A DNA stretch of 62,021 nucleotides, the filler included, from Stramenopiles sp. TOSAG23-3 (taxonomy: Eukaryota), in NCBI GenBank assembly GCA_900128585.1. It is 2 parts of 2 records of this genome, joined end to end, with 100 filler letters (N's around TTAATTAATTAA, not from the genome) between each part and the next. Parts side by side here need not be neighbours in the genome. Positions count along the whole stretch, not along the records: positions 1 to 31,008 come from LT642223.1; 1 more part is not named here. One strand, written 5' to 3'. Positions within the stretch are counted from its first letter, which is position 1. Each line of letters starts with the position of its first letter. Position numbers and translations under genes: made by a program. Under the pieces are notes generated by a model, which did not search any database, had not been told where the DNA came from, and worked only from the letters and a program-made list of their open reading frames with translations. Positions 14,439-44,092 of the stretch are shown piece after piece.

Positions 14439-15329
14439 ATGAGTAGGATCATTTCCAATATCGCGTCGTTCTCTCTCTTTGTTCTGCTGCGATGTTGTTG
14501 TTGCTCGGCACTGGTCACCGCCGTCCCAAGCTGCCCGAAGTGGCTTCAGCCAGTCTGTACGTCATCGTGTGTTATTAAAAATTGCTTGCCGCCTTTATTT
14601 AAGTGCTTGGAGGATTCAACTTGCCGGGGCAACCTTGAAAAGATGGGGCCCTGCATGGCGACGTTAAAGCCTACTGACCCGAGGTACCCGTATGCCTGCA
14701 TGGTGCCGGACAACAAGCTACGGAACGACTTCTTGCACTGCGTCATCCAAGAACACAAGTGCGCGCCAATACTGCCAGGCCCTAAGTATCCTTCCTGCCG
14801 CATGGCGGACGTAGTCCCAAAGGGGGACATTCATGGCGACAAATATTTTAAGATCTCCGATTTGAAAGGAAAATGGCACAAGGTTCGGGCGTGGAAGCTT
14901 GGCGAACCATTTGAATGTTTAGGCTGCCAAAGTGCCGAGTTCACTCAGACAACAGCTGGGGAGGTTGCGTTCCAGTCGAATTGGACGGAGGACGACATTA
15001 AGAACACCCCGACTCCGATGAGTGTTGTTTCGCACATGAAAGCTCGGCCATCGGGCGGACCTGGCGCCCTTGAAAATAGTGGGTCGATGTTTGGCTTGAA
15101 CTATGTAGAGCCCTACCTTGTCGTAAAGGACGCAAGCGTGAGCTCGGAACCGTTTCTATTTTTTTACGTGTGCGGGAGCACTATGCAGGGAAACTACACG
15201 ACTGCCTTTGTCCTTGGCAAAACGCCAACTCTAAGCGCTGAAGCAGAAAAAGCGGCGTCGCTTGTTGCCGAGAGCATTGGGCTTAAATGGTCTGATTTTT
15301 GTGTGAACAACAACACATGCTTTAATTAA
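14439..15329 (+). CDS. Violaxanthin de-epoxidase-like (VDL/VDR-type) Cys-rich lipocalin with signal peptide
   Basis: Cys-rich region CVIKNC..LFKCLEDSTC..N...GPC...C...NDFLHCVIQEHKC, then lipocalin motif DLKGKWHKV, FECLGCQ and terminal DFCVNNNTC. Confidence 0.72.
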   Translation: MSRIISNIASFSLFVLLRCCCCSALVTAVPSCPKWLQPVCTSSCVIKNCLPPLFKCLEDSTCRGNLEKMGPCMATLKPTDPRYPYACMVPDNKLRNDFLHCVIQEHKCAPILPGPKYPSCRMADVVPKGDIHGDKYFKISDLKGKWHKVRAWKLGEPFECLGCQSAEFTQTTAGEVAFQSNWTEDDIKNTPTPMSVVSHMKARPSGGPGALENSGSMFGLNYVEPYLVVKDASVSSEPFLFFYVCGSTMQGNYTTAFVLGKTPTLSAEAEKAASLVAESIGLKWSDFCVNNNTCFN

Positions 15330-17427: not shown

Positions 17428-19938
17428 ATGGGGGCGGGAGGTTCCGTTGGTCAGCGTGGGCCTCTGGAAGAAGTAAGCCGGATTCTTGAAGCTGGGGGCT
17501 TTGGGGCCCCGCAGGGGGATGGGAGTGCACAGGAGGAACAATTGATTCAATTCTTAAAACTGGTGAACGCTGCTGGGCTATCCACTGTCCCTGTCGTAAA
17601 GGCCGAAATAGACCAGATGGAACTGCCCCCTGGCGCGCTGGCCGGTGGAACTGGGGAATTTGCGGCGGAAGAGGCAGCCCCTGTAGCAATCAACAACGCG
17701 GGGGAGAAGCTTGCCCGATTTCAGGCCTTTTTGAAAGAGAAATTGGCCAACGAAGGCGACCTTTTTTCGGACGCGCACTTTGTCGCGAACGAGAATGCCA
17801 TGTGCATACACGGGGTGGAGCAAGACCAGGCCGTCCCGTGGAAGCGCATGAAGCACGTCTACGACCGTCCGGCGGCAGAAAACGCCACCAACCCGTTGGA
17901 GCTGTTTCCCGCCAACGAGCCATCGAGTGGGTCCGTTGTCCAAAGTTCGCACTTGGGCGATTGCTACTTTATCGCTGCGTTGAGTGTGCTTGCAGAACGG
18001 CCAGAATACGTGCGCAGGCTATTCAGGGCTAGCGACCAGACCACATACCCCGCCGATGGTCGCTTCGTTTTGAACTTGCACAATTGTGGCCAGTGGCGGG
18101 AGATAAGCTTGGACGATCTCCTGCCCACAGCGGTTGTGGGAGGGACCGATCGGCCGTATTTCTGTCGAAACGAGCCAGGGCATGGGTATTGGGCCCCACT
18201 GTTGGAAAAGGCGTACGCGAAAATCTATGGTTCGTACGGGGCCATCAACGGAGGAGACATTGCCGAGGCCCTGCGGGACTTGACGGGCTCCCCAGTAATT
18301 TCCCACCGCATCGACCATGGAGAAGGAGAAAAGCTAGTGAAGAGCGGCGCAATGTGGACAGAAATGGAGTCCAGAATTAGGCATGGCCACCTCATGGCAT
18401 GCGGTTGGTGTGGAAACGAGAAAGAGATCAAAGCCTACCTTGGCCAAAGAAAAAAAAAGGGGAAGATCGGCCACCCACTTTATTCTGAGATCATTCCCAA
18501 CCATGCCTACTCCATCTTGGACTGCAAGGAGGAAAAGGGGAAGAAACTTGTAGAGGTCCGGAACCCCCATGCGACCTGGGGGGACTACAGTTCCGACGAG
18601 GGGAACCAAAAAGTGGAAAGGAGCAACGATGGTCGAGTTTGGGTCCCATTTCAAATGTGGACCAAGAGTTTCAACGCCCTGTACATATGCGCACTGCACC
18701 ACTCCACGTTGCTGAAAGACGACCCGGCCTGCCTCGTGTCCCCGAGTCTGGTGGCAGTTCAGGGCCGGTGGGCGAAGGGCTCGGCGGGCGGGTGCTCTCA
18801 GTTTAGCGGGTGGCGCGACAACCCCCAGTACTCCCTGCGGGCCAAAAGTGAAGGGAAAGTGTACATTACCATTTCCCAGCCGGATAAAAGACAGGGGCGG
18901 GAAAAGGTTGTGTCCGTGGACCAGTTTGAAAAACTGAGTTACAACCAAATTGGCGTCGAAATTGTGAAGATACAGGAGGGGAATTTTGGGCCAGAGTTGG
19001 TGTCAGGGAAGTACAGTGTGTTGCAGAAGACCTCGTTCTGGAACAAGAGGGACGTGTCGCTGGAACTGCAGATTACGAAAGAATTGGTCGGCACCGACAT
19101 CGTCCTCATTCCAAGCACATTTTATCCAAACCAGGAAGGATCTTTTACGTTGACAGCAGAGTGGGACGAAGAGTTGAGAGCAAAGGCAGAAAAGGGCACG
19201 GGCAAAACCGACCCAGGCCTCACGCTGACACGCCGCTCATTTGGGTCTAGTGGAAACGTCCCTTTAGAATCGGGTAATTCCAACAGTGCAGAAACGGGGC
19301 ACTCCTTTGAGTTTTTGTACACGTTTGACGGCGAATGGGACGCAAAAACTTCCGGCGGCCCTCCGCACAACAACCGATTCCATCTGAACCCGCAGTACCA
19401 GCTGAACGTAGGGTGCGATACCGACGTGATCGTTTTTGTCAGGCGCGTGGAGACCAATGGCAAGAAGAACGGGAAGCAACAGAAGAAACTTGGCATCGGA
19501 ATTCACGCGTACGCTGCCGTAGAATGTTTGGACCAGCCAAGCACAGTCGAAGTTTTATGCTTCGGCAAGCACCCCATTGGCAAACCCGTACTAATGAAAG
19601 CTCCTGAAATCTCCAAGGCGATCTCGGTTACCACCAACCAAAACCCAATTTTGATAGTCCCTTGCGTTGAAAAAGGAGGCAAGAGCAAGTTCCAGGTTCA
19701 TGTTCTAACTTCTCGACCGGTTGACATTCAGCCAGCAACTAAAAAGCCTAGCAAAGCTCAGGTGGACCTCATCAAAATTGAGTTGGAAGAGAAACAAGAG
19801 GAGCACGCTGCAGCCTCGGCCTCGAAAAAGGCAAAGAAGAAGAAAAAAGGCCCAAAGAAAGAAAGCGGGGGCATGTCTTTCGGGAAGGCACGGGCAGGGA
19901 TGATGGGGATGAGCATGGACTACGGAAATTTGGAGTGA
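17428..19938 (+). CDS. Calpain-family cysteine protease: CysPc + two C2-like domain III modules, N-myristoylation motif
   Basis: Starts MGAGGS. QSSHLGDCYFIAAL (Cys), LLEKAYAK, NHAYSI (His), RNPH (Asn). GRW..GSAGGC...NPQY...IPSTF and a second GEW..TSGG...NPQY. Confidence 0.93.
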   Translation: MGAGGSVGQRGPLEEVSRILEAGGFGAPQGDGSAQEEQLIQFLKLVNAAGLSTVPVVKAEIDQMELPPGALAGGTGEFAAEEAAPVAINNAGEKLARFQAFLKEKLANEGDLFSDAHFVANENAMCIHGVEQDQAVPWKRMKHVYDRPAAENATNPLELFPANEPSSGSVVQSSHLGDCYFIAALSVLAERPEYVRRLFRASDQTTYPADGRFVLNLHNCGQWREISLDDLLPTAVVGGTDRPYFCRNEPGHGYWAPLLEKAYAKIYGSYGAINGGDIAEALRDLTGSPVISHRIDHGEGEKLVKSGAMWTEMESRIRHGHLMACGWCGNEKEIKAYLGQRKKKGKIGHPLYSEIIPNHAYSILDCKEEKGKKLVEVRNPHATWGDYSSDEGNQKVERSNDGRVWVPFQMWTKSFNALYICALHHSTLLKDDPACLVSPSLVAVQGRWAKGSAGGCSQFSGWRDNPQYSLRAKSEGKVYITISQPDKRQGREKVVSVDQFEKLSYNQIGVEIVKIQEGNFGPELVSGKYSVLQKTSFWNKRDVSLELQITKELVGTDIVLIPSTFYPNQEGSFTLTAEWDEELRAKAEKGTGKTDPGLTLTRRSFGSSGNVPLESGNSNSAETGHSFEFLYTFDGEWDAKTSGGPPHNNRFHLNPQYQLNVGCDTDVIVFVRRVETNGKKNGKQQKKLGIGIHAYAAVECLDQPSTVEVLCFGKHPIGKPVLMKAPEISKAISVTTNQNPILIVPCVEKGGKSKFQVHVLTSRPVDIQPATKKPSKAQVDLIKIELEEKQEEHAAASASKKAKKKKKGPKKESGGMSFGKARAGMMGMSMDYGNLE

Positions 19939-20208: not shown

Positions 20209-23200
20209 TCATTCCGAATCCTTTGTGGCAAAGAAAACATACAGACCCGTGTTCCTCAGCCGTTTCGGCTGAAGGGCTTCTTGGTGCAAACACGTAAATG
20301 CAAAACCACGATCTTTCATTTTTTGAAAGAATAGCCGTTCGCGATCGGCGTGTCGCATCCGGTATACAATGATCAAAATGCCACTGGATGCCAAAACTTT
20401 ATCAAACGCCAAAAGCAATCCCTCGTAATGCTTTGGTTCATACAAACAGTCAGACGCCAGTACCACGTCAAACCCATGCTGTGGCACCCAGCTGTTTTTT
20501 GAGTCGTCGGCGCCGTCTTCGAGGAGGGCACACCAATCAAAATGCTCGGCCACAATTGAATTGGATGCAGAAATAAAATTGCATGCGATGGCTCCCTGAA
20601 CATTTTCATTCACCAATGGCATTATTTCAGTCACGTCCGTCAAGACAACGTGGGCGGCAGAACATTTTGCGCTTGCTACAATCCCACAAAAACCGGTCCC
20701 ACAGCCGAGGTCAATAACGCTTCTTCGCGTCAAAAAACTGCTTGGCAAGTCTTGCAACAAAGCACTTAGTACCAGCCCACAATCCCATACGACTGCGCCC
20801 AGGCCCAAGTCTAGCCGTTGTCGAACTGGAAGCACCGATTTGTCTTTCATCTCGACCTCGAACACCTTCTTGTTTGCTTTGACAAAGTTTACACCCAGGG
20901 TTGGGGTTTCCTTGGAAGCGTTGGCGAAGATTCTCTCCCAACCAGCAACGGTTCGGAAAGGAAGGTCCCACCTGTCCACGCGCTGCCCATGCTTCATTTT
21001 GTTCACCATAGATTTGATACAAAACCCCGTTTTCTGGAGCAAAAGGCCCTCCCCGTATATTGGGGGGGGATGAGAGCTTTGCGAAACGAATTGTAGCCGG
21101 GGCAAATTAACGATGCCATCCGGTGGGCGAACGCACAGACCCTCTGACAAAACGATTGCGTGGAACACGGCCGTTTCCTCAGCAGTCTTTAACTTTTGCA
21201 ACAACGACAAAATCAGGCTGTGGTCCTTTCCATTCAAAAAATCTTCAGGGATGGCCCGCAAAGCACGGCAACACGCCCGCGCCAATTCCCACGCATGGGG
21301 GGCCAGCATGCCAGGGCAGAATGAGCAGGTCTTTTCAAAAAAGGAAAGAATCGAGAGGAGTCGTTTCCGGACCGGGGACCTGCTAGCCAGGAGTTCTTTT
21401 CGGCTTCTGGTACTGCCGTCTGCGTCGGCATTCTGGTTCACAGCGCGCAAATCTTCAAGGCTGACCGACGTTTTTGCACTCCACAGTTGCGATAAACTGC
21501 TTAGCATTTCCCGCTTCAGAATTGGCCACAGTTTTTTAGTAAACCGAGCTTGTATAAACTGCGAACAGAGTTCGCACAATGTAGACATGCAGCCCAACGC
21601 CGAGCAGAAAACAGGGAGTTCCGGGGCCCGGCACATGGCGGCGATCGTATCCCAAGACTGCGCCACGGCCGGCAACAAGTCGTTTTCTACCAGCGCCAAC
21701 ACTTTGAATCCCGAACGCATAGTTTCCAAAACTTTGCATCGCATGATTACTGGCCCCCCTGGTAAAAAATGGCGCACTTTTGTCAACAGGGTCTTCGCGG
21801 CTTCCCTTTCGTGCAGGCAGGGGGCAGCAGCACTGGGGTCTTCTTCGCCCACAATTTCCTCCGCGTCGTCGGCTGCGCTTTCTTCTTTCAAAGTGGGCGG
21901 CGCTCGAATGTCAACGTCGTCTTGGGCATCGATGCTGGTCAAGTGGCGGTCCCATTCGACGATCTCGTCGATGAGAACTTCCATACTACTTCTTGGTCTT
22001 TTTCGAGCAAAGGTGCGCTTTCCCCGAAGAGGAACACCTTCCGCGACGAGAACTTTTTGAACGTGCTCTTCCAAGGCAGCCATGAGATCGTGCACGGCCA
22101 TCATTAGCGTAACCAGGTGTTTCGAAGAGGCATAAAAACCGCCGTTGGCGTTGGATATTTCACTGTCTATGCTCCGAAGAAGGGTGTTGACCACTTCGTG
22201 AAGGAGCGCCCCGGTCGTGTCGTAATTTGCAGCGTGAACAACGATGCCGCGGATCACCCGAGGGGTAAAGGGGTAGTCCTCTAGAAATGTCAACCGAAGA
22301 CAAATATTGTCAATCAAATAGTCCACATTGTCCTCTATGAGTGCGTCAATGCCGGTGTATTCGCACGCGTTCGATATCCGCAAGAGGGACGCAAGGGCAG
22401 CCTGGACCACAATCAGCCCGGGGTCTCCCAACTTTTCTAGCAAGGGGTATACCAGGTCCATCAAGCACGATTTGAAGGCGCCTTGTCTTACTTCGCTGGC
22501 ATGCGCCAAGCGAGACAACAGCAAAGACACCGCCACCTCGCTCTCAAACCTTTCTTCGAAGCTTCGGACGGGTCCTTTCACACGAAGGGCTTCGCTGTCA
22601 TTGTATGGGGCCGAGGCTGCGTTCGCAGTACCCGATGCATTATTCCACTCGTGGCACCTGACGGTATCCTGCAAGAACGTGCACACAAAGTCCTCGGTTA
22701 AGTCTGCCAAGGCACCAGCAAAAATGGCGTTGGTCATAAATACACACTCGCATCTCCTCGATATCCGCCAGTCCTGCGCGGTCTCATCCGTCAGGTAACT
22801 CAGCACGTCGACAGAATCCGTATACCGACCAACACTTTCCAAAAGCAACCCAACCGAGGTTCGGCATGCCTTTGAGCGCACGTACTTGAATGGTACGTCA
22901 TAATAAGCCGCAGTAAGTTGGGTGCTCCGCGGGCCGCCAGCTTGGTCCCGGTTGAAATACGTCCGGTAAACGAGGGGGCCGCGGTGCTGCTCTGTGATGG
23001 CGGACCGGTCTAAAGCCAAAGCTTGCGCTATGAACCTGCACAGTTTTGGGGTCTCGTCGATACTAAAAACGTTGCCCAGGCGGGTTTGCAGCAGCCGTGC
23101 GTAGCCAGTCGCGGTCAACAGGGCAGAATGAAGATGCTGATCGTCTCCCCCCCGAGCTGTACGCGACAGCGACACGAGCAGGTTTCGAAAGCGAACATCC

Positions 23201-24282
23201 AGCCGGGACCAAACTTGCTCCACGAACCTAGCCTTGCTCGTTTCCAACAGTCTTTCTGAAGCTGCGACAATGTCATCATTCGCTTGGTCCAAAGTGAAAA
23301 GAATCAGCATTTCTATTAGGTCATCCATGCACGACGCTGTCATCGTCCGAGAGCACCCAAGAAGGATCTTTTCCGCAAACTGGATACCCGCAAGGCGAAC
23401 TTTCCATCTGTTCTGACTGTTCAAGCCGATCTGTTTGATGCTTCCGATGGCATTTTTTATCAACATAGAGATGCGGGCGGTCGTTTCGTACAACCAGTTT
23501 TGATCCCGGCTGACCCGAATGTCCATGTGGTTTTTGCTGGCACCCCCCGAAATGGTCCCTTGCCCCACTGTTCCTGTGATCGACGACCTCGTCGTGGCGT
23601 CCTTCTCTTTGCCCGCGCCCGAAAGCACGCCGTGGCCTTCTAAGACGCCTTTCATTTGAAGAATGGCAGACTGGGGCGCCCCCCCATGCGCGGTCCGCGA
23701 GTCTGCCCCTCCCCGAAAGTTACGCAAGAGGTCCTTGCTGACGTCATCCCCGATTGCGCCAAACAAGAGAGTTCCCCAGACATCCAGGGCTAGGCAAGGC
23801 AGGGCGTGCCCCCGCTTGAAATCCCCGCAGACAATCTTGCAAACCCCAGTGCTTATCCCCGGCAGAAAGCAAGACAGCGTGTCTGCGCTCTTGACGGTGG
23901 AGCATACTTTTTGCAAAACTTGGAGCGACAGCTCGGCATTTTTCCTATTTTTCTCTTCTTTTCCAACTGCTAGTAAAATCGCCACAAAATGGCCCAGGAG
24001 TGCGCGTCGCTTCGGGTTTGAAAATATCGTGCCCACAGTCGGCGTGAATATCGTGTTCAATATTTCGAGCGCGTAAGCCCGCGCCTCCTCGCTACTGGAG
24101 GAGTTGAACTCCCCCTTGGGTGTGCCTATGGCGGAGACCGAGTGGTGAAACACCAATGTCCACTGGGTCGGAAAGTCGTCAAAGTAAAACCTGGGCTTTC
24201 CCTTCACTTCCGAAAGCAACACCCCCAAGGCGTTCTCGCCAAGGGCACCAGACTGTTCGCCGGAAGGTGGGAGGTTACTCAT
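20209..24282 (-). CDS. TTI1: TELO2-interacting protein 1 (TTI1, HEAT/ARM) fused to a C-terminal METTL21/Methyltransf_16-type lysine methyltransferase
   Basis: TTI1-like motifs: CFLPGIST, LVYPLLEKLG, DNVDYLID, LLPAVAQSW, FIQARF. MTase motifs: GAVVWDCGLVL, VIDLGCGTG, VVLTD, FDW, FDVVLASDCLY, YRMR. First ATG at 24282. Confidence 0.85.
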   Translation of the reverse strand: MSNLPPSGEQSGALGENALGVLLSEVKGKPRFYFDDFPTQWTLVFHHSVSAIGTPKGEFNSSSSEEARAYALEILNTIFTPTVGTIFSNPKRRALLGHFVAILLAVGKEEKNRKNAELSLQVLQKVCSTVKSADTLSCFLPGISTGVCKIVCGDFKRGHALPCLALDVWGTLLFGAIGDDVSKDLLRNFRGGADSRTAHGGAPQSAILQMKGVLEGHGVLSGAGKEKDATTRSSITGTVGQGTISGGASKNHMDIRVSRDQNWLYETTARISMLIKNAIGSIKQIGLNSQNRWKVRLAGIQFAEKILLGCSRTMTASCMDDLIEMLILFTLDQANDDIVAASERLLETSKARFVEQVWSRLDVRFRNLLVSLSRTARGGDDQHLHSALLTATGYARLLQTRLGNVFSIDETPKLCRFIAQALALDRSAITEQHRGPLVYRTYFNRDQAGGPRSTQLTAAYYDVPFKYVRSKACRTSVGLLLESVGRYTDSVDVLSYLTDETAQDWRISRRCECVFMTNAIFAGALADLTEDFVCTFLQDTVRCHEWNNASGTANAASAPYNDSEALRVKGPVRSFEERFESEVAVSLLLSRLAHASEVRQGAFKSCLMDLVYPLLEKLGDPGLIVVQAALASLLRISNACEYTGIDALIEDNVDYLIDNICLRLTFLEDYPFTPRVIRGIVVHAANYDTTGALLHEVVNTLLRSIDSEISNANGGFYASSKHLVTLMMAVHDLMAALEEHVQKVLVAEGVPLRGKRTFARKRPRSSMEVLIDEIVEWDRHLTSIDAQDDVDIRAPPTLKEESAADDAEEIVGEEDPSAAAPCLHEREAAKTLLTKVRHFLPGGPVIMRCKVLETMRSGFKVLALVENDLLPAVAQSWDTIAAMCRAPELPVFCSALGCMSTLCELCSQFIQARFTKKLWPILKREMLSSLSQLWSAKTSVSLEDLRAVNQNADADGSTRSRKELLASRSPVRKRLLSILSFFEKTCSFCPGMLAPHAWELARACCRALRAIPEDFLNGKDHSLILSLLQKLKTAEETAVFHAIVLSEGLCVRPPDGIVNLPRLQFVSQSSHPPPIYGEGLLLQKTGFCIKSMVNKMKHGQRVDRWDLPFRTVAGWERIFANASKETPTLGVNFVKANKKVFEVEMKDKSVLPVRQRLDLGLGAVVWDCGLVLSALLQDLPSSFLTRRSVIDLGCGTGFCGIVASAKCSAAHVVLTDVTEIMPLVNENVQGAIACNFISASNSIVAEHFDWCALLEDGADDSKNSWVPQHGFDVVLASDCLYEPKHYEGLLLAFDKVLASSGILIIVYRMRHADRERLFFQKMKDRGFAFTCLHQEALQPKRLRNTGLYVFFATKDSE

Positions 24283-24819
24283 ACCTCTGGTAAGTAGGCA
24301 ACAAGACAAGGCAGGTAAATACGACGACACACAGGATACTGGTTCTACAAATTCAAATGAACATCCTTCTTCCGGGGAGTTCTTCCTTCACTCACGAAAC
24401 CGTGGTACGAATAAAGTGCGTTGTAGTTAGTTAATTGTATCTCGGAAAGTAAATGAGAAGATATTAAATTTCACTCTAACTATATGTATGCATACAGTCT
24501 AGTTTGTAGCTTATATATTGCATTATATATAATTAAAAATCCGAATCAAAACATTTCATCGATCGAAATAATAATCGAAATCGAAATCGAAATTTTAATT
24601 ATTGAAAAAAAAGAGAAGAAAGAAGAAAAAAGAAAGAAGAAGAAGAAGAAAAGATGATATTTTATTCTTTTTTTAATCAATTTTGATAGAGAGAGAGAGA
24701 GTAGAAACGAAGACACAACAACTACAAAAAAGAAAATAAATAATTATAAATTCTTCCTTATACATATACAGTTTACTCTGCTTGGATAATATTGACCTGT
24801 CTATAAATTTCTTTCTTCT

Positions 24820-25240
24820 CATATCTTCTTCTTTCTTCTTCTTTCTTCTTCTTTTATCTTCTTCTTTCTCTTTCTTCTTCTTCTTCTTCTTCTTCTTCTT
24901 CTTCTTCTTTCTTCTTCTTCTTCTTCTTTTTCTTCTTTCTTCTTTCTTCTTTCTTCTTTCTTCTTTCTTCTTCTTCTTCTTTCTTCTTTCTTCTTTCTTC
25001 TTTCTTCTTTCTTCTTCTTCTTCTTCTTTCTCTTTCTCTTTCTCTTTCTATTTCTATTTCTCTTTCTTCTTCTTCTTCTTCTTCTTCTTCTTTTTCTTCT
25101 TCTTCTTCTTCTTCTTCTTCTTCTTTTTCTTCTTCTNNNNNNNTCTTCTTCTTCTTCTTCTTCTTCTTCTTCTTCTTCTTCTTCTTCTTCTTCTTTTTCT
25201 TCTTCTTCTTCTTCTTCTTCTTTTTCTTTCTCTTTTCATC
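24820..25240. repeat. Long TTC/TTTC tract in divergent spacer
   Basis: Seen directly. Confidence 0.95.
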
Positions 25241-25470
25241 ATATTTATTACTCTCAGAGAAGGATCAATTTATATAAAGTATATATATCTACTAGTAATA
25301 AGTTCTTAAGATTTTACAAAACAAAAGAATAGACTATGGTTTGTTGAGTTATTAAAAAGGTAGTCACTCTTTGTCTTGGCTTGTTGTTTGGGTTTATTAT
25401 TTAAAACGGACATCTAATATATACATATATATAGTTCTCCAGTTCACGGCGACGACGGACGGTCAGAAGT

Positions 25471-27756
25471 ATGGCGACGCAACCACCCGACACTTTTCTG
25501 GAACGGCTAGACCGTTGGGCCACCGAGCAGCCGAAAAAAGAAGCCTTCTCCTTTGTGGATGATAGCGGGAAAGAAACTACTGTATTGTCGTACGAAGAGC
25601 TGTACGCGAAGACGGCAAGCATTGCCCGTTCAATGCGGAAAGACAAGGCGTCTGGCGGGTGGGGGATCCAAGCGAAGGACAGAGTGTTGTTAGTGTACCC
25701 TCCGTCGCTCGACTTTATAATAGCGTACATAGCCTGCCTTCGCGCCGGCGTCGTCGCCGTGCCAGTGTTCCCACCGCACCCGGGAAAACTGCGAAAGGAT
25801 TTGCAGCACTTTGCGAGCATTCACAAGAGCAGCGGGGCGCAGGTCGCGCTGACTAATAACGCGTACAACTGGGCAAAGAAGGTGGCGGGGATAAAGAAAT
25901 CGTTCTCAAAGTCGAAGCAAGAGTGGCCGGACGTGCAGTGGATCTTGACGGACGGCAAGTTGCCCGTCAAGCCCGGGGAAGCCGCCGGCGCGTTGGGAGA
26001 AGACGCGGTCGAGCGGACAGACCTTGCGTTTTTGCAGTACACGTCTGGGTCGACCTCAGAGCCAAAGGGCGTCATGATTTCCCATGCCAATTTGGGCCAC
26101 AACCTGTCGACCATTGTGGCAGCGTTGCAGGCGTCGCAGGACACCGTAGTGTGCGCCTGGCTCCCGCAGTACCACGACATGGGCCTGATCGGCTCGTACC
26201 TCGGGGCCCTGTACTGCGGGGGGTCTGGGGTATACATGTCGCCTTTGTCATTCATCAAGAATCCACCGCTTTGGATTAAAATGTGCAGCAAGTACAAAGC
26301 AACGCACACCCAGGCCCCCAATTTTGCCTACAAATTGACGGCGCGAAAGTTTAACGCGCTGCCGAGCAGCAAGAAGCCTGCCGAGTTGGACTTGGGTTCG
26401 ATGCAGCACATGTTTAATGCCGCCGAGCCCGTCACAGCAGATTCGATCGACGCGTTTTACGATACATTTGAACAGTTCGGGCTCAGCCGCAACGCTATCG
26501 TTCCTGGTTACGGATTAGCAGAGCAGACGGTGTACGTGTGCGACGGGGGGTCTCAGCGCCTAACGTTGGACAAGAACGCCCTGAAGGAAAACAAAGTTGT
26601 CACGCTGCCGGAGACCGCCGATGAGAGCGTAAAAAAACACTTGATTGGCTGCGGGAAGCCGCGGCGCGAGGAGCACGGGATCGATCTCCGAATAGTGGAC
26701 ATAGAATCTCGCGCCGAGTTGGCAGAGGATCAAATTGGAGAAGTCTGGGTCAACAGTCCCTCGAAAGCGGGGGGGTACTTTGGGCAAGAGGACACGTCCG
26801 CCGAAGCGTTCAACGCAGCCCTGTCGTCTTCCCTCGAAGGCAAGGACGGTGCCGAGGACGGGACGACCTACCTGCGCACTGGCGATTTAGGCTTTTTGCA
26901 CAACGGCGAGCTGTTCATATGCGGACGGGACAAAGACTTGATCATCATCCGTGGCGGCAATCACTACCCGCAAGATATCGAACAGGTCGTAGAGAGCGAC
27001 GACAGAGTGCGGCCAGGCTGCAGCGCAGCCTTTTCTGTGACGGTTGATGACGAAGAAGTTTTGGTAGTGGTTGCCGAGTTGAGGAATGCCAAAGATTCTG
27101 CGGTACAAGAAATTGCCCGGGACGCTCGGCAGCGAGTGACCCAAGAGCATGGGGTTCAGGTCCACACGCTCGTAATGATCAAGCCCAGGACCGCCGAGAA
27201 GACCAGCAGCGGTAAAATAGCGCGCCGGTGGGCGCGCAAAGCCTACCTTGCAGGGTCCTTAAACGTGGTTCTGAAGAGTTCCGGCGGTGGATTGGGCCGC
27301 AAGGCGGCCGCGGGAATCGGGGCGAAGACGAAGACCCCGAAGAAGAAGGCTGCAAACGGTGGCGGGTCCAACAAAGAGCGCTTCCTAGACGAGGTCAGCA
27401 ATTTGACCGAGATAGACCCGGATGATTTGGCGTTAGATGTTCCGCTTCAAGAAATGGGGCTGGATAGTATGGTGATCGAGCAAATGCGTGGTATGATTAG
27501 TGGTGAATTTGGGGTAGAGATAGAGGTTGAAGAATTGTTCGACGAGGAGTGCACACTGAGCAAAATTATCAGAAAGATTGATGGGGACGACGATGTGGGC
27601 ACCCCAAAGAAGGATGGAGACGCAGTGGTAGTACCCATCGATGGGGATAACTCTGGGGCGTCCCGGGCAGCCAACGCGAAGAAGAAGGCCCCGTCTACGT
27701 TTGAAGTAATTTTCTGTTTTTGCTGCCGTGGGAATAAAAACGGCACCAAGCAGTAA
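25471..27756 (+). CDS. Fatty acyl-AMP ligase (FAAL) fused to an acyl carrier protein, with Cys-rich tail
   Basis: AFLQYTSGSTSEPKGV, WLPQYHDMGLIG, APNFAY, NAAEP, YGLAE, FAAL-type insertion before LIGCG, LRTGDLG, GRDKDLIII, KTSSGKI. ACP motif LQEMGLDSM. Tail FCFCC. Confidence 0.92.
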   Translation: MATQPPDTFLERLDRWATEQPKKEAFSFVDDSGKETTVLSYEELYAKTASIARSMRKDKASGGWGIQAKDRVLLVYPPSLDFIIAYIACLRAGVVAVPVFPPHPGKLRKDLQHFASIHKSSGAQVALTNNAYNWAKKVAGIKKSFSKSKQEWPDVQWILTDGKLPVKPGEAAGALGEDAVERTDLAFLQYTSGSTSEPKGVMISHANLGHNLSTIVAALQASQDTVVCAWLPQYHDMGLIGSYLGALYCGGSGVYMSPLSFIKNPPLWIKMCSKYKATHTQAPNFAYKLTARKFNALPSSKKPAELDLGSMQHMFNAAEPVTADSIDAFYDTFEQFGLSRNAIVPGYGLAEQTVYVCDGGSQRLTLDKNALKENKVVTLPETADESVKKHLIGCGKPRREEHGIDLRIVDIESRAELAEDQIGEVWVNSPSKAGGYFGQEDTSAEAFNAALSSSLEGKDGAEDGTTYLRTGDLGFLHNGELFICGRDKDLIIIRGGNHYPQDIEQVVESDDRVRPGCSAAFSVTVDDEEVLVVVAELRNAKDSAVQEIARDARQRVTQEHGVQVHTLVMIKPRTAEKTSSGKIARRWARKAYLAGSLNVVLKSSGGGLGRKAAAGIGAKTKTPKKKAANGGGSNKERFLDEVSNLTEIDPDDLALDVPLQEMGLDSMVIEQMRGMISGEFGVEIEVEELFDEECTLSKIIRKIDGDDDVGTPKKDGDAVVVPIDGDNSGASRAANAKKKAPSTFEVIFCFCCRGNKNGTKQ

Positions 27757-41163: not shown

Positions 41164-42450
41164 ATGGGAAAGGCTCGTCTCCTTGGATGCGGAGGCTGCT
41201 GCCTCTTCATGGGTCTTGTCCTCGTCGTGTTCGCGGCAGGGGCTGGCGAGTGGTTTGTAAAGACTGCAGCAAGGGCCATGCTGAAAAAGGTCTTAATGCC
41301 CGACTTTGCCACAATGAAGGACAACGCGGCTGAATGTGCGGCGTACAAGGACGCTTGGTCTTACGACAAATTTACAGACGGAAAACGAAGGTTTGACCAG
41401 AAAGACTTTAAGGACTGCATCGGCGCGTCCAAGCACTACTACCTTTACCACGTGACTAACCCAGACGCTGTTGAAACCGGAACTGCCCCCATCGTCGAGA
41501 AAAGGGGGCCTTGGGTGTTCAAAACGGAATTCAGAAACTATGCAATGTTTCACAACGAAAAGGACGATAGCGTGTCGTCCATTAGCAGCTCGTGGCAGTT
41601 GATTGACGATGAGGAAACAAAAAAACTTTGCCCGAAGTGCGCAACTGATAAACTTTGCGCATCCTGGCCCAACACTGCAACGAAAGATGAAACGCCCACG
41701 GAATGCACCAAAGGAACTATCAATCACACCTCATCCAACGCCGAGTACAACACAATCACACACGCTAACCAGGGCTACCTTGGTTTGATGAATGCCCTCG
41801 ATGTTTACAAGCCCGTCGGCGGGGTCGATGAAAAGTTCATACAACACCAGCTTGGCTCAGCCACAGCGGGTGCCCTGATGGGACCCGAGAGCGTTTGGGT
41901 AGGTCTGACTTCCACGCTTTCAAACGCAGCTTTGGTTGAGATGCAATTTGGGGCGGGGACTCTTGCATTCCAGAAATTGGCCACCACTTTGACAAATGGG
42001 CTCAGCAACTTTGAAACGAAATTTAGAGCGAAAGATGCAGCGGCATTGTTCTTCCAGATGAAAACTGTTATTGGGGTTCCAGATGGAACCACCAGTGGAA
42101 TCGGAGCCAATGCGTTTAAAAAGTTGTTCCCCAACCCCTATGCTGGTGAAGACGGCAAAATCCTTGGGAGGTGGGACGTGTCATTAACATCAATCGTAGG
42201 GTTTGGCTTTTGGATATCTGAAATGGGTGCTGGCCGCCGAGGACTGTCCCCTATGCAGTCCCCCGCAGACAGCCGTATCGCTTCGCCAAATTATGTCTCA
42301 GGAACAGAGCGAATCCAGGGGGAGGGCGAGGAGAAGAAGGCGTGGAACCCCGAAAGTACGCCCACCGTCTCCCGGGATAGAAGGGTGGGATCCTCCCGCT
42401 CAAGATTTGTCCGACCTTCGGGCGGCATCTTTGAGGGCCATGTCCACTGA
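41164..42450 (+). CDS. CD36/scavenger receptor class B-like protein (N-terminal part; truncated or frameshifted near 42200)
   Basis: N-terminal TM, then YYLYHVTNPDAVETGTAPIVEKRGPWVF (CD36 signature). The 3' part overlaps the next ORF in another frame. Confidence 0.7.
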   Translation: MGKARLLGCGGCCLFMGLVLVVFAAGAGEWFVKTAARAMLKKVLMPDFATMKDNAAECAAYKDAWSYDKFTDGKRRFDQKDFKDCIGASKHYYLYHVTNPDAVETGTAPIVEKRGPWVFKTEFRNYAMFHNEKDDSVSSISSSWQLIDDEETKKLCPKCATDKLCASWPNTATKDETPTECTKGTINHTSSNAEYNTITHANQGYLGLMNALDVYKPVGGVDEKFIQHQLGSATAGALMGPESVWVGLTSTLSNAALVEMQFGAGTLAFQKLATTLTNGLSNFETKFRAKDAAALFFQMKTVIGVPDGTTSGIGANAFKKLFPNPYAGEDGKILGRWDVSLTSIVGFGFWISEMGAGRRGLSPMQSPADSRIASPNYVSGTERIQGEGEEKKAWNPESTPTVSRDRRVGSSRSRFVRPSGGIFEGHVH

Positions 42451-44092
42451 TTCATCCCCGCCGGCCTCATCGAAGTCACCAAAATCAGAAACCAGGCCTT
42501 CGCGCCGAAAAGGATCACGGGCTTCCACGCCCAAAAAAGACGGTTCGATCCGGGCGGGAACACCGAAACTTAGAAATCGGCCCAGACAACACCAGAAGCA
42601 CCGAGCGGGAAAATTTAAATTGAGCGTGGAGGAAGAGAAAACAGCCCTGGTGCCCAGTATTACAAACGAAGGGGACAGTGACTTGTCCGAATCGGTCGAC
42701 AGGGCAGCGCCGGCGCTGTCGGATCGGCCCAAGGCTCCGTCGACAGAACCGCCTGCAAACACAGGCCTTCCTGGAGGCAGCGGAACGTTTGACGATCCCG
42801 TGACAGCTGGGTTTGAACCCCCATCCCCCGCTGCTGTGGCTTCGGTGACGCCATTTCCCGAGGACCTCCCGTCTCAGAGGCTGTCGGAAGTTAAATGTCC
42901 GAATCGAGACGTGCAAGAGATCGGGCGACTGCTGTCCCTCGGCGCCCGCCTGTGCCGGGCAATCCCATTCGTCGTGCAGGAGAGAAAATCTATACAGAAC
43001 AAAGGGTTCGTTCAGAAGGTAAAAGATATGTGGACAATGCTGAAAAGCGGAATTTCTGGGTTGTCTCCGGAAGATCAAACTAGCGTGTTTCAAAAAATGC
43101 AAGTAACGACCGCAGAGGTAATCAGCGAGTTGGGAAAAGTAGACCAGCGGCTCTCCGCGGACTTCTTACAGCCTTGGGTTCGTGGCAACGAACTCCTGTA
43201 CGACGAGGACGAGATGAAGGAAAGGGCAGAGTTGCTGTCGAACAACAGGACAATATCCCAACTGTTCCAAGAAATATGGGGTCGGGTGACCGCTGGTGTC
43301 GACGGGAGTGGGCACTTGACGGAAAATGGCTACGGTGCGGTGTTTTCCAGGATAAGCGGTGTGCTACAGAAGGAGTTTTCCTTCTCTGAAACTGTCCCTG
43401 AAATAAAGAAAGAGTACGAGATTCGCGCCCGAAGGTGCGGAGGACATGTCGATATTTTCGCCTTCCGTGACTCCATATTCGAGCTCGTAAACATCTGGTG
43501 CCAAGAAACGTCGCAGCGCGCCTTTCAACAGTTTTTTTCTTTCATCCTGGACGTTACCCCCGAAGGTGGCATAGCCACGGCAATAGCCCTGTACGACTCT
43601 GCCGCCGGGGGCAACAAGCAGGCACTTTACCAGTACGAGAAAGTTTCAAAAAAATTGACCAAGAAGCTTGCCTATTTGTCACCGGCGGCGTCGCCTGTGG
43701 CGCAGACCGACCAAAAGAAGCTGGCCAATACTACGGGAAAGAGGCAGTTTGGCAAAGACCGGAGGCGCCAACGCCAGCGGAACAATTTTGGTGCAATGTC
43801 TCTGCCTTCCATGCAAGAAACAGACGAGGAACCCTACGGGAATGGGATTGGTCCGTCATCCCCGCTGTCGAACAATTCTGCCAGCAACGCAAGCTTTGGT
43901 CGCAGGGCCCCCGCATCCCCCCAACAACAAAAGACCCGACTGAAGCTGGATTCAGACTTTCTGAACAATTTGAGCGAATCTTCGTCCGATTCGGATTCTG
44001 ATTCAAGCGATGGCGAAGAGGGCCAATTTGTTGGAGACTCAATGAAATATTCCAACGTTTCAGGATCGTGCATGTGGTGGAGGGAAAAATAA
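42293..44092 (+). CDS. Hypothetical protein with degenerate EF-hand-like domain and disordered termini
   Basis: Frame open from 42200, first ATG 42293. GVDGSGHLTENGY and GGHVDIFAFRDSIFELVNIW are EF-hand-like. Confidence 0.65.
   Translation: MSQEQSESRGRARRRRRGTPKVRPPSPGIEGWDPPAQDLSDLRAASLRAMSTDSSPPASSKSPKSETRPSRRKGSRASTPKKDGSIRAGTPKLRNRPRQHQKHRAGKFKLSVEEEKTALVPSITNEGDSDLSESVDRAAPALSDRPKAPSTEPPANTGLPGGSGTFDDPVTAGFEPPSPAAVASVTPFPEDLPSQRLSEVKCPNRDVQEIGRLLSLGARLCRAIPFVVQERKSIQNKGFVQKVKDMWTMLKSGISGLSPEDQTSVFQKMQVTTAEVISELGKVDQRLSADFLQPWVRGNELLYDEDEMKERAELLSNNRTISQLFQEIWGRVTAGVDGSGHLTENGYGAVFSRISGVLQKEFSFSETVPEIKKEYEIRARRCGGHVDIFAFRDSIFELVNIWCQETSQRAFQQFFSFILDVTPEGGIATAIALYDSAAGGNKQALYQYEKVSKKLTKKLAYLSPAASPVAQTDQKKLANTTGKRQFGKDRRRQRQRNNFGAMSLPSMQETDEEPYGNGIGPSSPLSNNSASNASFGRRAPASPQQQKTRLKLDSDFLNNLSESSSDSDSDSSDGEEGQFVGDSMKYSNVSGSCMWWREK

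Follow-up and report, generated by a model that had tools for sequence, protein, structure and literature searches.

TTI1 is known as a pure scaffold. Together with TELO2 and TTI2 it forms the TTT complex, and the TTT/R2TP/HSP90 pathway matures TOR, ATM, ATR and other kinases related to phosphatidylinositol 3-kinase (PIKKs). The human protein has 1089 amino acids (aa). In human TTT, for which a TTI1 construct of residues 468-1089 is described, TTI1 contacts the N-terminal part of TTI2 through its own C-terminal half, the complex sits on the DII face of RUVBL1-RUVBL2, and the TOR kinase region is bound directly with a contribution of TTI1-TTI2 (PMC8278493, available part). The lysine methyltransferases of family 16 include enzymes whose substrates are ATP-driven chaperones, namely HSP70 for METTL21A (HSPA-KMT) and the AAA+ protein VCP for METTL21D (VCP-KMT) (PMC10238732, in the sections available); METTL21D requires an adaptor, ASPL, to expose its buried target lysine (PMC9942839, likewise in part). 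Here we describe a gene, TTI1-KMT, that appears to join these two families in one protein. It lies on the minus strand at positions 20209-24282 of a stretch of 62,021 nucleotides (nt) from Stramenopiles sp. TOSAG23-3 (GenBank assembly GCA_900128585.1), which as a whole we call the window.

The predicted protein consists of a full TTI1 HEAT/TPR scaffold (residues 1-1085), a variable linker of ~25-45 residues and a complete seven-beta-strand enzyme of family 16 (residues 1110-1357). Its TTI1 module has the same four Pfam domains in the same order as TTI1/Tti1 of TELO2-TTI1-TTI2, the part that was modelled consists entirely of helical repeats, and at ~1085 aa it is comparable in size to human TTI1, from which the protein differs by a C-terminal enzyme domain that is absent from the matched solved human chains. 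The enzyme shares with METTL21D and METTL21A the Methyltransf_16 domain, motif I, the acidic residue of Post I, the D-x-x-Y of Post II and the lysine cage. However, it is only 24-27% identical to them and carries an N-terminal extension ('W..IF ... LGVNF') that is unaligned to the human enzymes and common to a stramenopile orthogroup. Whereas METTL21D relies on the adaptor ASPL, the fused enzyme is covalently joined to a scaffold. Sequence comparison suggests that the module is part of a distinct stramenopile orthogroup, marked by an N-terminal motif of its own, the human paralogues being ranked by E-value alone. We consider it very probable that the fusion protein is real, and the comparisons below point to a genuine gene fusion, evolutionarily retained, in a MAST-4-like (marine stramenopile group 4) organism.

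On the minus strand, a single open frame extends over 20209-24330 (1373 aa if counted from a GTG), and its first ATG, at 24282, opens a stop-free protein of 1357 aa. This agrees with the initial annotation, which had proposed one stop-free open reading frame (ORF) at 20209-24282; the strings it quoted (VVWDCG, DLGCGTG, LTD, ASDCLY and IYGEGLLL) are all found in the translation, as are the in-frame ATGs at 21009 and 20997, which encode M1092 and M1096. As the frame is free of stop codons, translation of a full-length mRNA from M1 yields the fusion in every case. Both M1 and the C-terminal end align across all four fused lineages discussed below, and the 1357-aa protein is found identically in four members of its own cluster, on contigs of up to 49,014 bp. 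The features of the gene are as follows.

20209-24282, minus strand: whole coding sequence of the fusion gene TTI1-KMT, 1357 aa, with the stop codon at 20209-20211.
21028-24282, minus strand: TTI1 module, residues 1-1085, recognised by four Pfam domains and human TTI1 structures.
23287-24123, minus strand: TPR_TTI1_N, residues 54-332 (4.9e-31, 108.3 bits against a cut-off of 27).
22183-22449, minus strand: central TTI1 domain PF21547, residues 612-700 (8.2e-20, 70.9 bits against a cut-off of 27).
21499-21930, minus strand: TPR_TTI1_C, residues 785-928 (7.3e-20, 72.2 bits against a cut-off of 27).
21028-21498, minus strand: TTI1 C-terminal tail, residues 929-1085, with helical repeats to about residue 1046, a low-confidence hairpin and a conserved P-I-Y-G-E..LL.K end.
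20956-21027, minus strand: variable linker, approximately residues 1086-1109, containing the in-frame ATGs at 21009 and 20997.
20212-20955, minus strand: lysine methyltransferase module, residues 1110-1357, with 'W..IF ... LGVNFVKANK' as its N-terminal extension.
20311-20847, minus strand: Pfam Methyltransf_16, residues 1146-1324 (4.8e-26, 92 bits against a cut-off of 21).
20776-20793, minus strand: VVWDCG, residues 1164-1169, in which W1166 aligns with the METTL21D lysine-cage residue Trp43.
20692-20712, minus strand: S-adenosylmethionine-binding motif I, DLGCGTG, residues 1191-1197 (ELGAGTG in METTL21A, ELGSGTG in METTL21D).
20440-20451, minus strand: Post II, D-C-L-Y, residues 1278-1281, in which Y1281 aligns with the METTL21D lysine-cage residue Tyr147.

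The base composition of the window is sharply bimodal, as seen in a profile of G+C content (GC), and the gaps between the other ORFs of at least 250 aa fall to a GC of 0.32 or less in some 100-nt segment in 21 of 21 cases. Two of these 21 gaps read 0.00, where runs of N are suspected (the window holds 485 N). At the junction of the two halves, the lowest GC of any 100-nt segment within 20850-21150 is 0.47, in line with the earlier statement that no AT-rich spacer lies there. With the other 22 long ORFs of the window as reference, the in-frame codon log-odds of residues 1076-1125 range from +0.01 to +0.23 per codon. For the whole gene the mean is 0.156 (standard deviation 0.137), and the GC at third codon positions is 0.56-0.72. 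In both composition and codon use, the junction thus resembles coding sequence.

The identification of the first half as TTI1 is well founded: all four Pfam TTI1 models match in canonical order, each above its gathering score, the second of them (TPR_TTI1_2nd) at residues 364-525 with 2.7e-11 and 43.9 bits against a cut-off of 27. The PF21547 region is the best-conserved block (YPLLEKLGD...DYLID) and contains columns that are invariant among the fused proteins. Human TTI1 chain 7ole_H is matched at 6.2e-38 from the single sequence and at 7e-58 from a profile of 18 fused sequences, and further solved TTI1 chains are matched at 7.3e-32 (9wjs_A) and 1.9e-23 (7f4u_B). The profile alignment spans residues 268-962 of 7ole_H, human residue 962 corresponding to query residue ~927. 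Beyond this point, in the tail, L1060, P1061, L1063, P1074, L1081, L1082 and K1084 are invariant among the fused proteins, and IYGEGLLL occupies residues 1075-1082.

The second half proved to be a methyltransferase of the METTL21 type, as annotated, with METTL21A and METTL21D as the top matches both in sequence and in fold, and the Methyltransf_16 match spans profile positions 2-173 of 174. Among solved enzymes, the best sequence matches are METTL21A (4lec, 1.3e-14) and METTL21D (4lg1, 5.1e-13), followed at lower rank by METTL21B (4.3e-08), EEF2KMT, METTL18 and METTL21C (1.4e-04). The names motif I, Post I and Post II and the consensus sequences D/E-x-G-x-G-x-G (motif I) and D-x-x-Y/F (Post II, which closes beta-4) are applied here in their usual sense. 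In HMMER alignments, VVLTD falls on Post I and ASDCLY on Post II of METTL21A and METTL21D, LTD being residues 1214-1216 and ASDCLY residues 1276-1281. L1161, W1166 and Y1281 align with Val38, Trp43 and Tyr147 of METTL21D (8hl6 numbering), and D1278 aligns with its D144. In METTL21D, Val38, Trp43 and Tyr147 form a hydrophobic cage surrounding the target lysine, as the accessible part of PMC9942839 describes, and Post II is presented as a group-specific motif in what is accessible of PMC10238732. Motif I, G1193, G1195, G1197, D1216, Post II and the cage residues are invariant in 18 full-length fused sequences. Given the intact motifs and cage, the module is likely to be an active lysine methyltransferase.

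We also modelled residues 780-1357 with AlphaFold2 from a 31-row alignment, and obtained a mean predicted local distance difference test (pLDDT) of 83.3 and a predicted template-modelling score (pTM) of 0.60. Helical repeats, modelled with high confidence, continue to about residue 1046 (model residue 267). They are followed by a hairpin whose pLDDT falls below 50 (model residues 275-290), by a stretch of moderate confidence that contains IYGEGLLLQK, and then by a weak helix and a break. From about residue 1110 onwards the model forms a Rossmann-type domain with pLDDT mostly above 90. Since the pTM is modest, the relative placement of the two domains is undefined. The top nine Foldseek matches in the PDB are METTL21D, METTL21A and 7oas, which may be an Arabidopsis enzyme, with E-values of 2.4e-12 to 6.9e-10 and target TM-scores of 0.80-0.87; the best of them are METTL21D 7oat_C (0.83) and METTL21A 4lec_B (0.86).

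A start of the methyltransferase near 20880, as first annotated, was not borne out. Stand-alone homologues already align from 'W..IF ... LGVNF', and the module therefore starts at about residue 1110 (nt 20955), which leaves a linker of ~25 residues in the window protein. The distance from K1084 to G1130 is 45 residues here and 39, 57 and 57 residues in the other three lineages, with the frame kept throughout; as linker lengths differ while the frame is intact, the insertions and deletions that occurred must have preserved it. Within the linker, P0004 and P0005 are identical at 18 of 32 positions (56%, compared to 67% for the whole proteins) and P0001 and P0003 at 6 of 15 (40%, compared to 48%). 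The pLDDT of the linker is 57-67, and below 50 at model residues 319-325.

The strongest case for a translated junction comes from comparison, as the same order of domains recurs in three further diverged clusters and on independent assemblies. Residues 930-1357 were searched against proteins with lengths of 746-2375 aa; of 7998 candidates scored, 4 clusters matched, and all 4 bear TTI1 and Methyltransf_16 domains. A profile of the methyltransferase module, run against proteins of 640-2000 aa, retrieved these 4 clusters again and no others. These protein searches were word-seeded or limited to the best 150 matches and are weak evidence of absence, so other eukaryotes may carry fused forms. Over their full length, the three other fused clusters share 48, 35 and 36% identity with the window protein. 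Records of full-length copies are spread over JGI/IMG, ENA, EukProt and NCBI-derived sources. An NCBI-derived model of 587 aa (P0026) equals residues 884-1470 of P0005 and spans the junction, which the EukProt model P0017 (1364 aa) also crosses. P0017 lacks ~125 residues of the single-ORF form and runs ~220 residues past the end of its exact match near the C-terminus of P0003, which suggests a gene model with predicted introns and run-on into downstream sequence.

One of the other lineages, L003, was checked as DNA. Its genome has a GC of ~28%, and the fusion is encoded there by one ORF of 1470 aa, for which the other two frames hold 132 and 188 stops. The L003 linker of 53 codons has no stop in frame, compared to 3 and 2 in the other frames. 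By composition alone, the linker would remain free of stops with a probability of ~0.02, and a junction region of 157 codons with one of ~9e-7.

An artefact has to be considered for any such arrangement, either an assembly chimera or a sequencing error that deleted a stop codon between neighbouring genes. The source organism is uncultured and the window contains N, both of which would suit an artefact. However, the identical 1357-aa ORF is present on several independently assembled contigs from two sources, three diverged lineages share the junction with linkers of differing length (with L003 confirmed at the DNA level), and contigs from RNA libraries are at least 99% identical to the gene without indels or joints. 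We find an artefact hardly credible: independent contigs cross the junction, as do EukProt and NCBI-derived models, and an assembly artefact is thereby excluded.

The cluster of P0003 includes a EukProt protein named 'Stramenopile-MAST_4_protein_606', and the organism may well be MAST-4-like, a label that rests on this one named record. Four substantially diverged MAST-4 species have been described, according to the available part of PMC8237690. In a library clustered at 50% identity, P0002 is the only full-length fused representative among the matches listed. P0038 is a 262-aa fragment of a P0003-like gene, and P0039 is an apparent P0004/P0005-like fragment that has only one exact 12-mer in common with P0005. 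Because both are fragments, this library adds no further fused lineage. Three short proteins of 184-221 aa in the 90% cluster of P0003 (P0015, P0021 and P0023) have no 12-mer in common with P0003 and were set aside as unrelated; their presence in the cluster is perhaps a clustering artefact or an overlapping gene call. A distant TTI1-like match of 47 residues in another contig, L004, was also discarded, as tblastn found neither further exons nor a methyltransferase there. In the ESM Atlas, residues 900-1357 retrieved generic Methyltransf_16 clusters only, with scores of 0.85 or lower, and no fused cluster; we treat these as leads only.

Outside the fused lineages, the methyltransferase occurs by itself. 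With residues 930-1357 as query, an exhaustive HMMER scan across 1.84 billion representatives yielded 3191 matches at E of 0.001 or lower. Among the best 150 of these 3191 matches, the TTI1 tail is aligned in the protein's own cluster only; for the others the best stretch begins at query position 176 or later (residue ~1105), and stand-alone matches align from query position 182-185. The best matches that are not fragments have 231-365 aa and begin at or just before 'W..(I/L)F ... LG(V/I)N(F/Y)(V/I).A'. They include named proteins from Pseudopedinella elastica (P0044), Lagenidium giganteum (P0048), Pythium insidiosum (P0050), Thraustotheca clavata (P0045) and Ectocarpus (P0040, partial). These named stramenopile proteins are 27-38% identical to the fused module and have the N-terminal and catalytic motifs in common with it, but they are only 231-285 aa long, have no TTI1 part and are all annotated as 'hypothetical protein'. 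Nineteen long Methyltransf_16 matches (365-1923 aa) were scanned in addition, and 0 of the 19 contains a TTI1 domain. Several of the long proteins carry tandem copies of the enzyme domain, an unusual arrangement, among them P0085 with six Methyltransf_16 domains in 1923 aa and P0105 with three in 1303 aa.

We built a quick maximum-likelihood tree of 66 rows, comprising the 4 fused modules and 62 matches of 180-420 aa (taken from P0040 and P0042-P0129); P0041, the two fragments (P0038 and P0039) and every match outside this length range were excluded. All four fused modules group in a single clade with a Shimodaira-Hasegawa-like approximate likelihood ratio of 99. By path length, the Ectocarpus (partial) and Pseudopedinella proteins are nearest to this clade, and the oomycete proteins fall into a neighbouring one; many deeper forks are unresolved. 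In ochrophytes and oomycetes the methyltransferase stands alone, and the matched solved human TTI1 chains are without a methyltransferase. The simplest history suggested by these sequences would be that TTI1 gained a stand-alone stramenopile methyltransferase gene at its 3' end in a single fusion, which has been retained since.

At the RNA level, 20 of 24 listed runs contain the stretch or part of it, and 15 of these 20 are recorded as RNA. Four runs from four studies were mapped as Logan contigs of 151-758 nt at a depth of 2-10, in which RNA ends and strand are not readable. RNA-library contigs cover both halves of the gene at the identity given above, without loose ends; the oligo-dT library X8 contributes pieces at 20271-20624 and 22285-24292. 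RNA across the junction was also sought: both halves are covered, but no contig bridges them, and the contigs are of low depth. An intron at the junction was considered and ruled out by the protein-level conservation there together with the absence of a splice joint in the RNA-library contigs.

Several observations weigh against a functional TTI1-methyltransferase fusion as we read it. The tail (residues 929-1085, ~157 residues) has no detectable sequence match to solved or canonical TTI1. The 'TTI1-like tail' of the initial annotation is thus upheld in that it is conserved in the fused lineages and modelled as helical, but not in any sequence match to the human TTI1 C-terminus; its length and helical model are compatible with the end of a TTI1, which we regard as plausible. 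The sole PDB match to residues 900-1110, AcrIIC3, has an E-value of 0.018 and was taken as chance. The fusion appears to be known from predicted proteins of uncultured organisms only, and the same organism may possess a second, unfused TTI1 or methyltransferase. Within family 16, chaperone targeting is established only for METTL21A and VCP-KMT, going by the available part of PMC10238732. As for the RNA, positions 21010-21164 are uncovered by all 26 listed pieces from the four runs (one further piece is not listed), and the X1 and X2 contigs, from two studies, have ends at 21009 and at 21001 and 21003, respectively, which coincide with the linker's first in-frame ATG, that of M1092. The Logan-derived protein P0010 likewise starts at M1092.

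The last three points could be due to a second product: an internal transcription start at ~21010-21030 would yield a stand-alone methyltransferase of ~266 aa from M1092, beside the fusion or, less likely, in place of it. In every lineage at least one Met lies among the ~50 residues preceding the module, and the contig ends at 21001-21009 are a weak hint of an internal RNA 5' end. Equally well, the assembly graph could have been broken by a polymorphism at 21010, which is the third position of a Ser codon. RNA ends cannot be read from contigs, and the gap is not exceptional for such sparse data: the runs cover 23, 16, 11 and 9 of 30 bins, and by our own estimate about one all-empty bin in the ORF is expected by chance. 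Beyond the gap, pieces resume at 21165 (X5), 21208 (X1) and 21220 (X2). Upstream of 21009 the GC is 49-56%, unlike the AT-rich intergenic regions elsewhere in the window (21 of 21), where the promoters lie. In addition, the candidate Met is not conserved in position between lineages, with none inside the linker of the P0003 lineage, and a full-length mRNA read from M1 must yield the fusion for lack of a stop codon. We therefore judge two products to be quite improbable and retain the single fused protein as the preferred reading.

The initial annotation had suggested that the fusion may tether lysine methylation to PIKK assembly, an idea that we find plausible. What the fused enzyme might do can be approached from the human complex. 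The enzyme sits on the C-terminal end of TTI1, which belongs to the half that binds TTI2 in human TTT, and from the contacts of human TTT it would act near TTI2, TELO2, the RUVBL ring and the client. On a flexible tether it could reach TTI2, TELO2, the RUVBL1/2 ring, HSP90/HSP70 and the kinase region of a bound PIKK, and a lysine on one of the proteins that meet TTT would be methylated during PIKK maturation; which protein that would be is a guess. The covalent tether to a scaffold could be an alternative to an adaptor such as ASPL as a way of bringing enzyme and substrate together. Our favoured explanation, held with moderate confidence, is that a lysine methyltransferase tethered to the scaffold modifies a partner or client of TTT. 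For a substrate inside the TTT/R2TP/PIKK network, argued by analogy, the odds are roughly even. By analogy with METTL21D acting on VCP, the RUVBL1/2 AAA+ ring may be the most attractive candidate. It is tempting to go further and to speculate that lysine methylation is a built-in step of PIKK maturation in stramenopiles, the tethered enzyme acting on a core partner in the TTT-R2TP-HSP90 machine or on the nascent PIKK and stand-alone orthologues doing the same job in trans, although this extension by analogy seems to us doubtful.

Alternatively, the fusion may be real and yet unconnected to TTT, the enzyme having kept an ancestral substrate such as a translation factor or general HSP70. The fusion would then merely couple expression, or persist since re-splitting is hard. 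The substrates of solved relatives do vary (HSP70 for METTL21A, VCP for METTL21D, eEF1A for METTL21B), orthologues in other stramenopiles stand alone without TTI1, and the linker is variable and partly of low confidence, which indicates no fixed docking. On the other hand, the fusion has been kept across four lineages diverged to 35-48% identity, and neither a fission product nor an unfused close paralogue appeared in the protein searches made. Retained fusions usually unite proteins that work together (the Rosetta-stone principle), which we also count against an unconnected enzyme. Overall we think it unlikely, though worth keeping in mind, that the fusion has nothing to do with TTT, and we prefer the tethered enzyme that modifies a TTT partner or client.

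MAST-4-like hosts belong to a group that is among the most abundant uncultured bacterivores of the ocean, and for uncultured protists, clues to function are few, a retained fusion being one of them. TTI1 here carries an enzyme, and this arrangement has been retained in four diverged lineages. From the fusion one would predict that an uncharacterised family-16 orthogroup is linked, physically and functionally, to the TTT/R2TP/HSP90 pathway. If this link is true, a layer of post-translational control would be added to PIKK biogenesis, and the fusion would serve as a Rosetta stone from which to read the function of the orthogroup in oomycetes, brown algae and dictyochophytes; if not, it is a curiosity of domain architecture. 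The initial annotation had recognised the architecture as unfamiliar, and this accords with our literature search, which found no description of it (most subscription journals were outside the search and supplements were unseen). No paper on a TTI1-methyltransferase fusion turned up in the literature searched, and the MAST-4 genome supplements, of papers available in part (PMC5778133, PMC8237690), could list the gene uncommented. We regard the fusion as an apparently undescribed, new and conserved domain architecture assembled from two known families.

The genes on either side of TTI1-KMT have no evident link to TTT. The divergent neighbour (25471-27756, plus strand) encodes 761 aa with AMP-binding, DIP2-like and phosphopantetheine carrier domains, and the convergent neighbour (17428-19938, plus strand) encodes a calpain with Peptidase_C2 and Calpain_III domains. 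Between the start of TTI1-KMT and the divergent neighbour, in the AT-rich region upstream of the start, a ~500-nt tract at 24782-25309 consists almost entirely of C and T (GC skew -1.0, AT skew ~-1); its translation contains a short run of X, taken as N. At 14439-15329 on the plus strand lies an ORF of 296 aa with a VDE lipocalin domain (violaxanthin de-epoxidase family, 6.4e-28), which would be unexpected if the host is a plastid-less heterotrophic flagellate. Further along the window, two plus-strand ORFs at 41164-42450 and 42293-44092 share ~160 nt, read in different frames. The first matches the CD36 family weakly, and the pair gives the impression of a single gene interrupted by a frameshift or a short intron.

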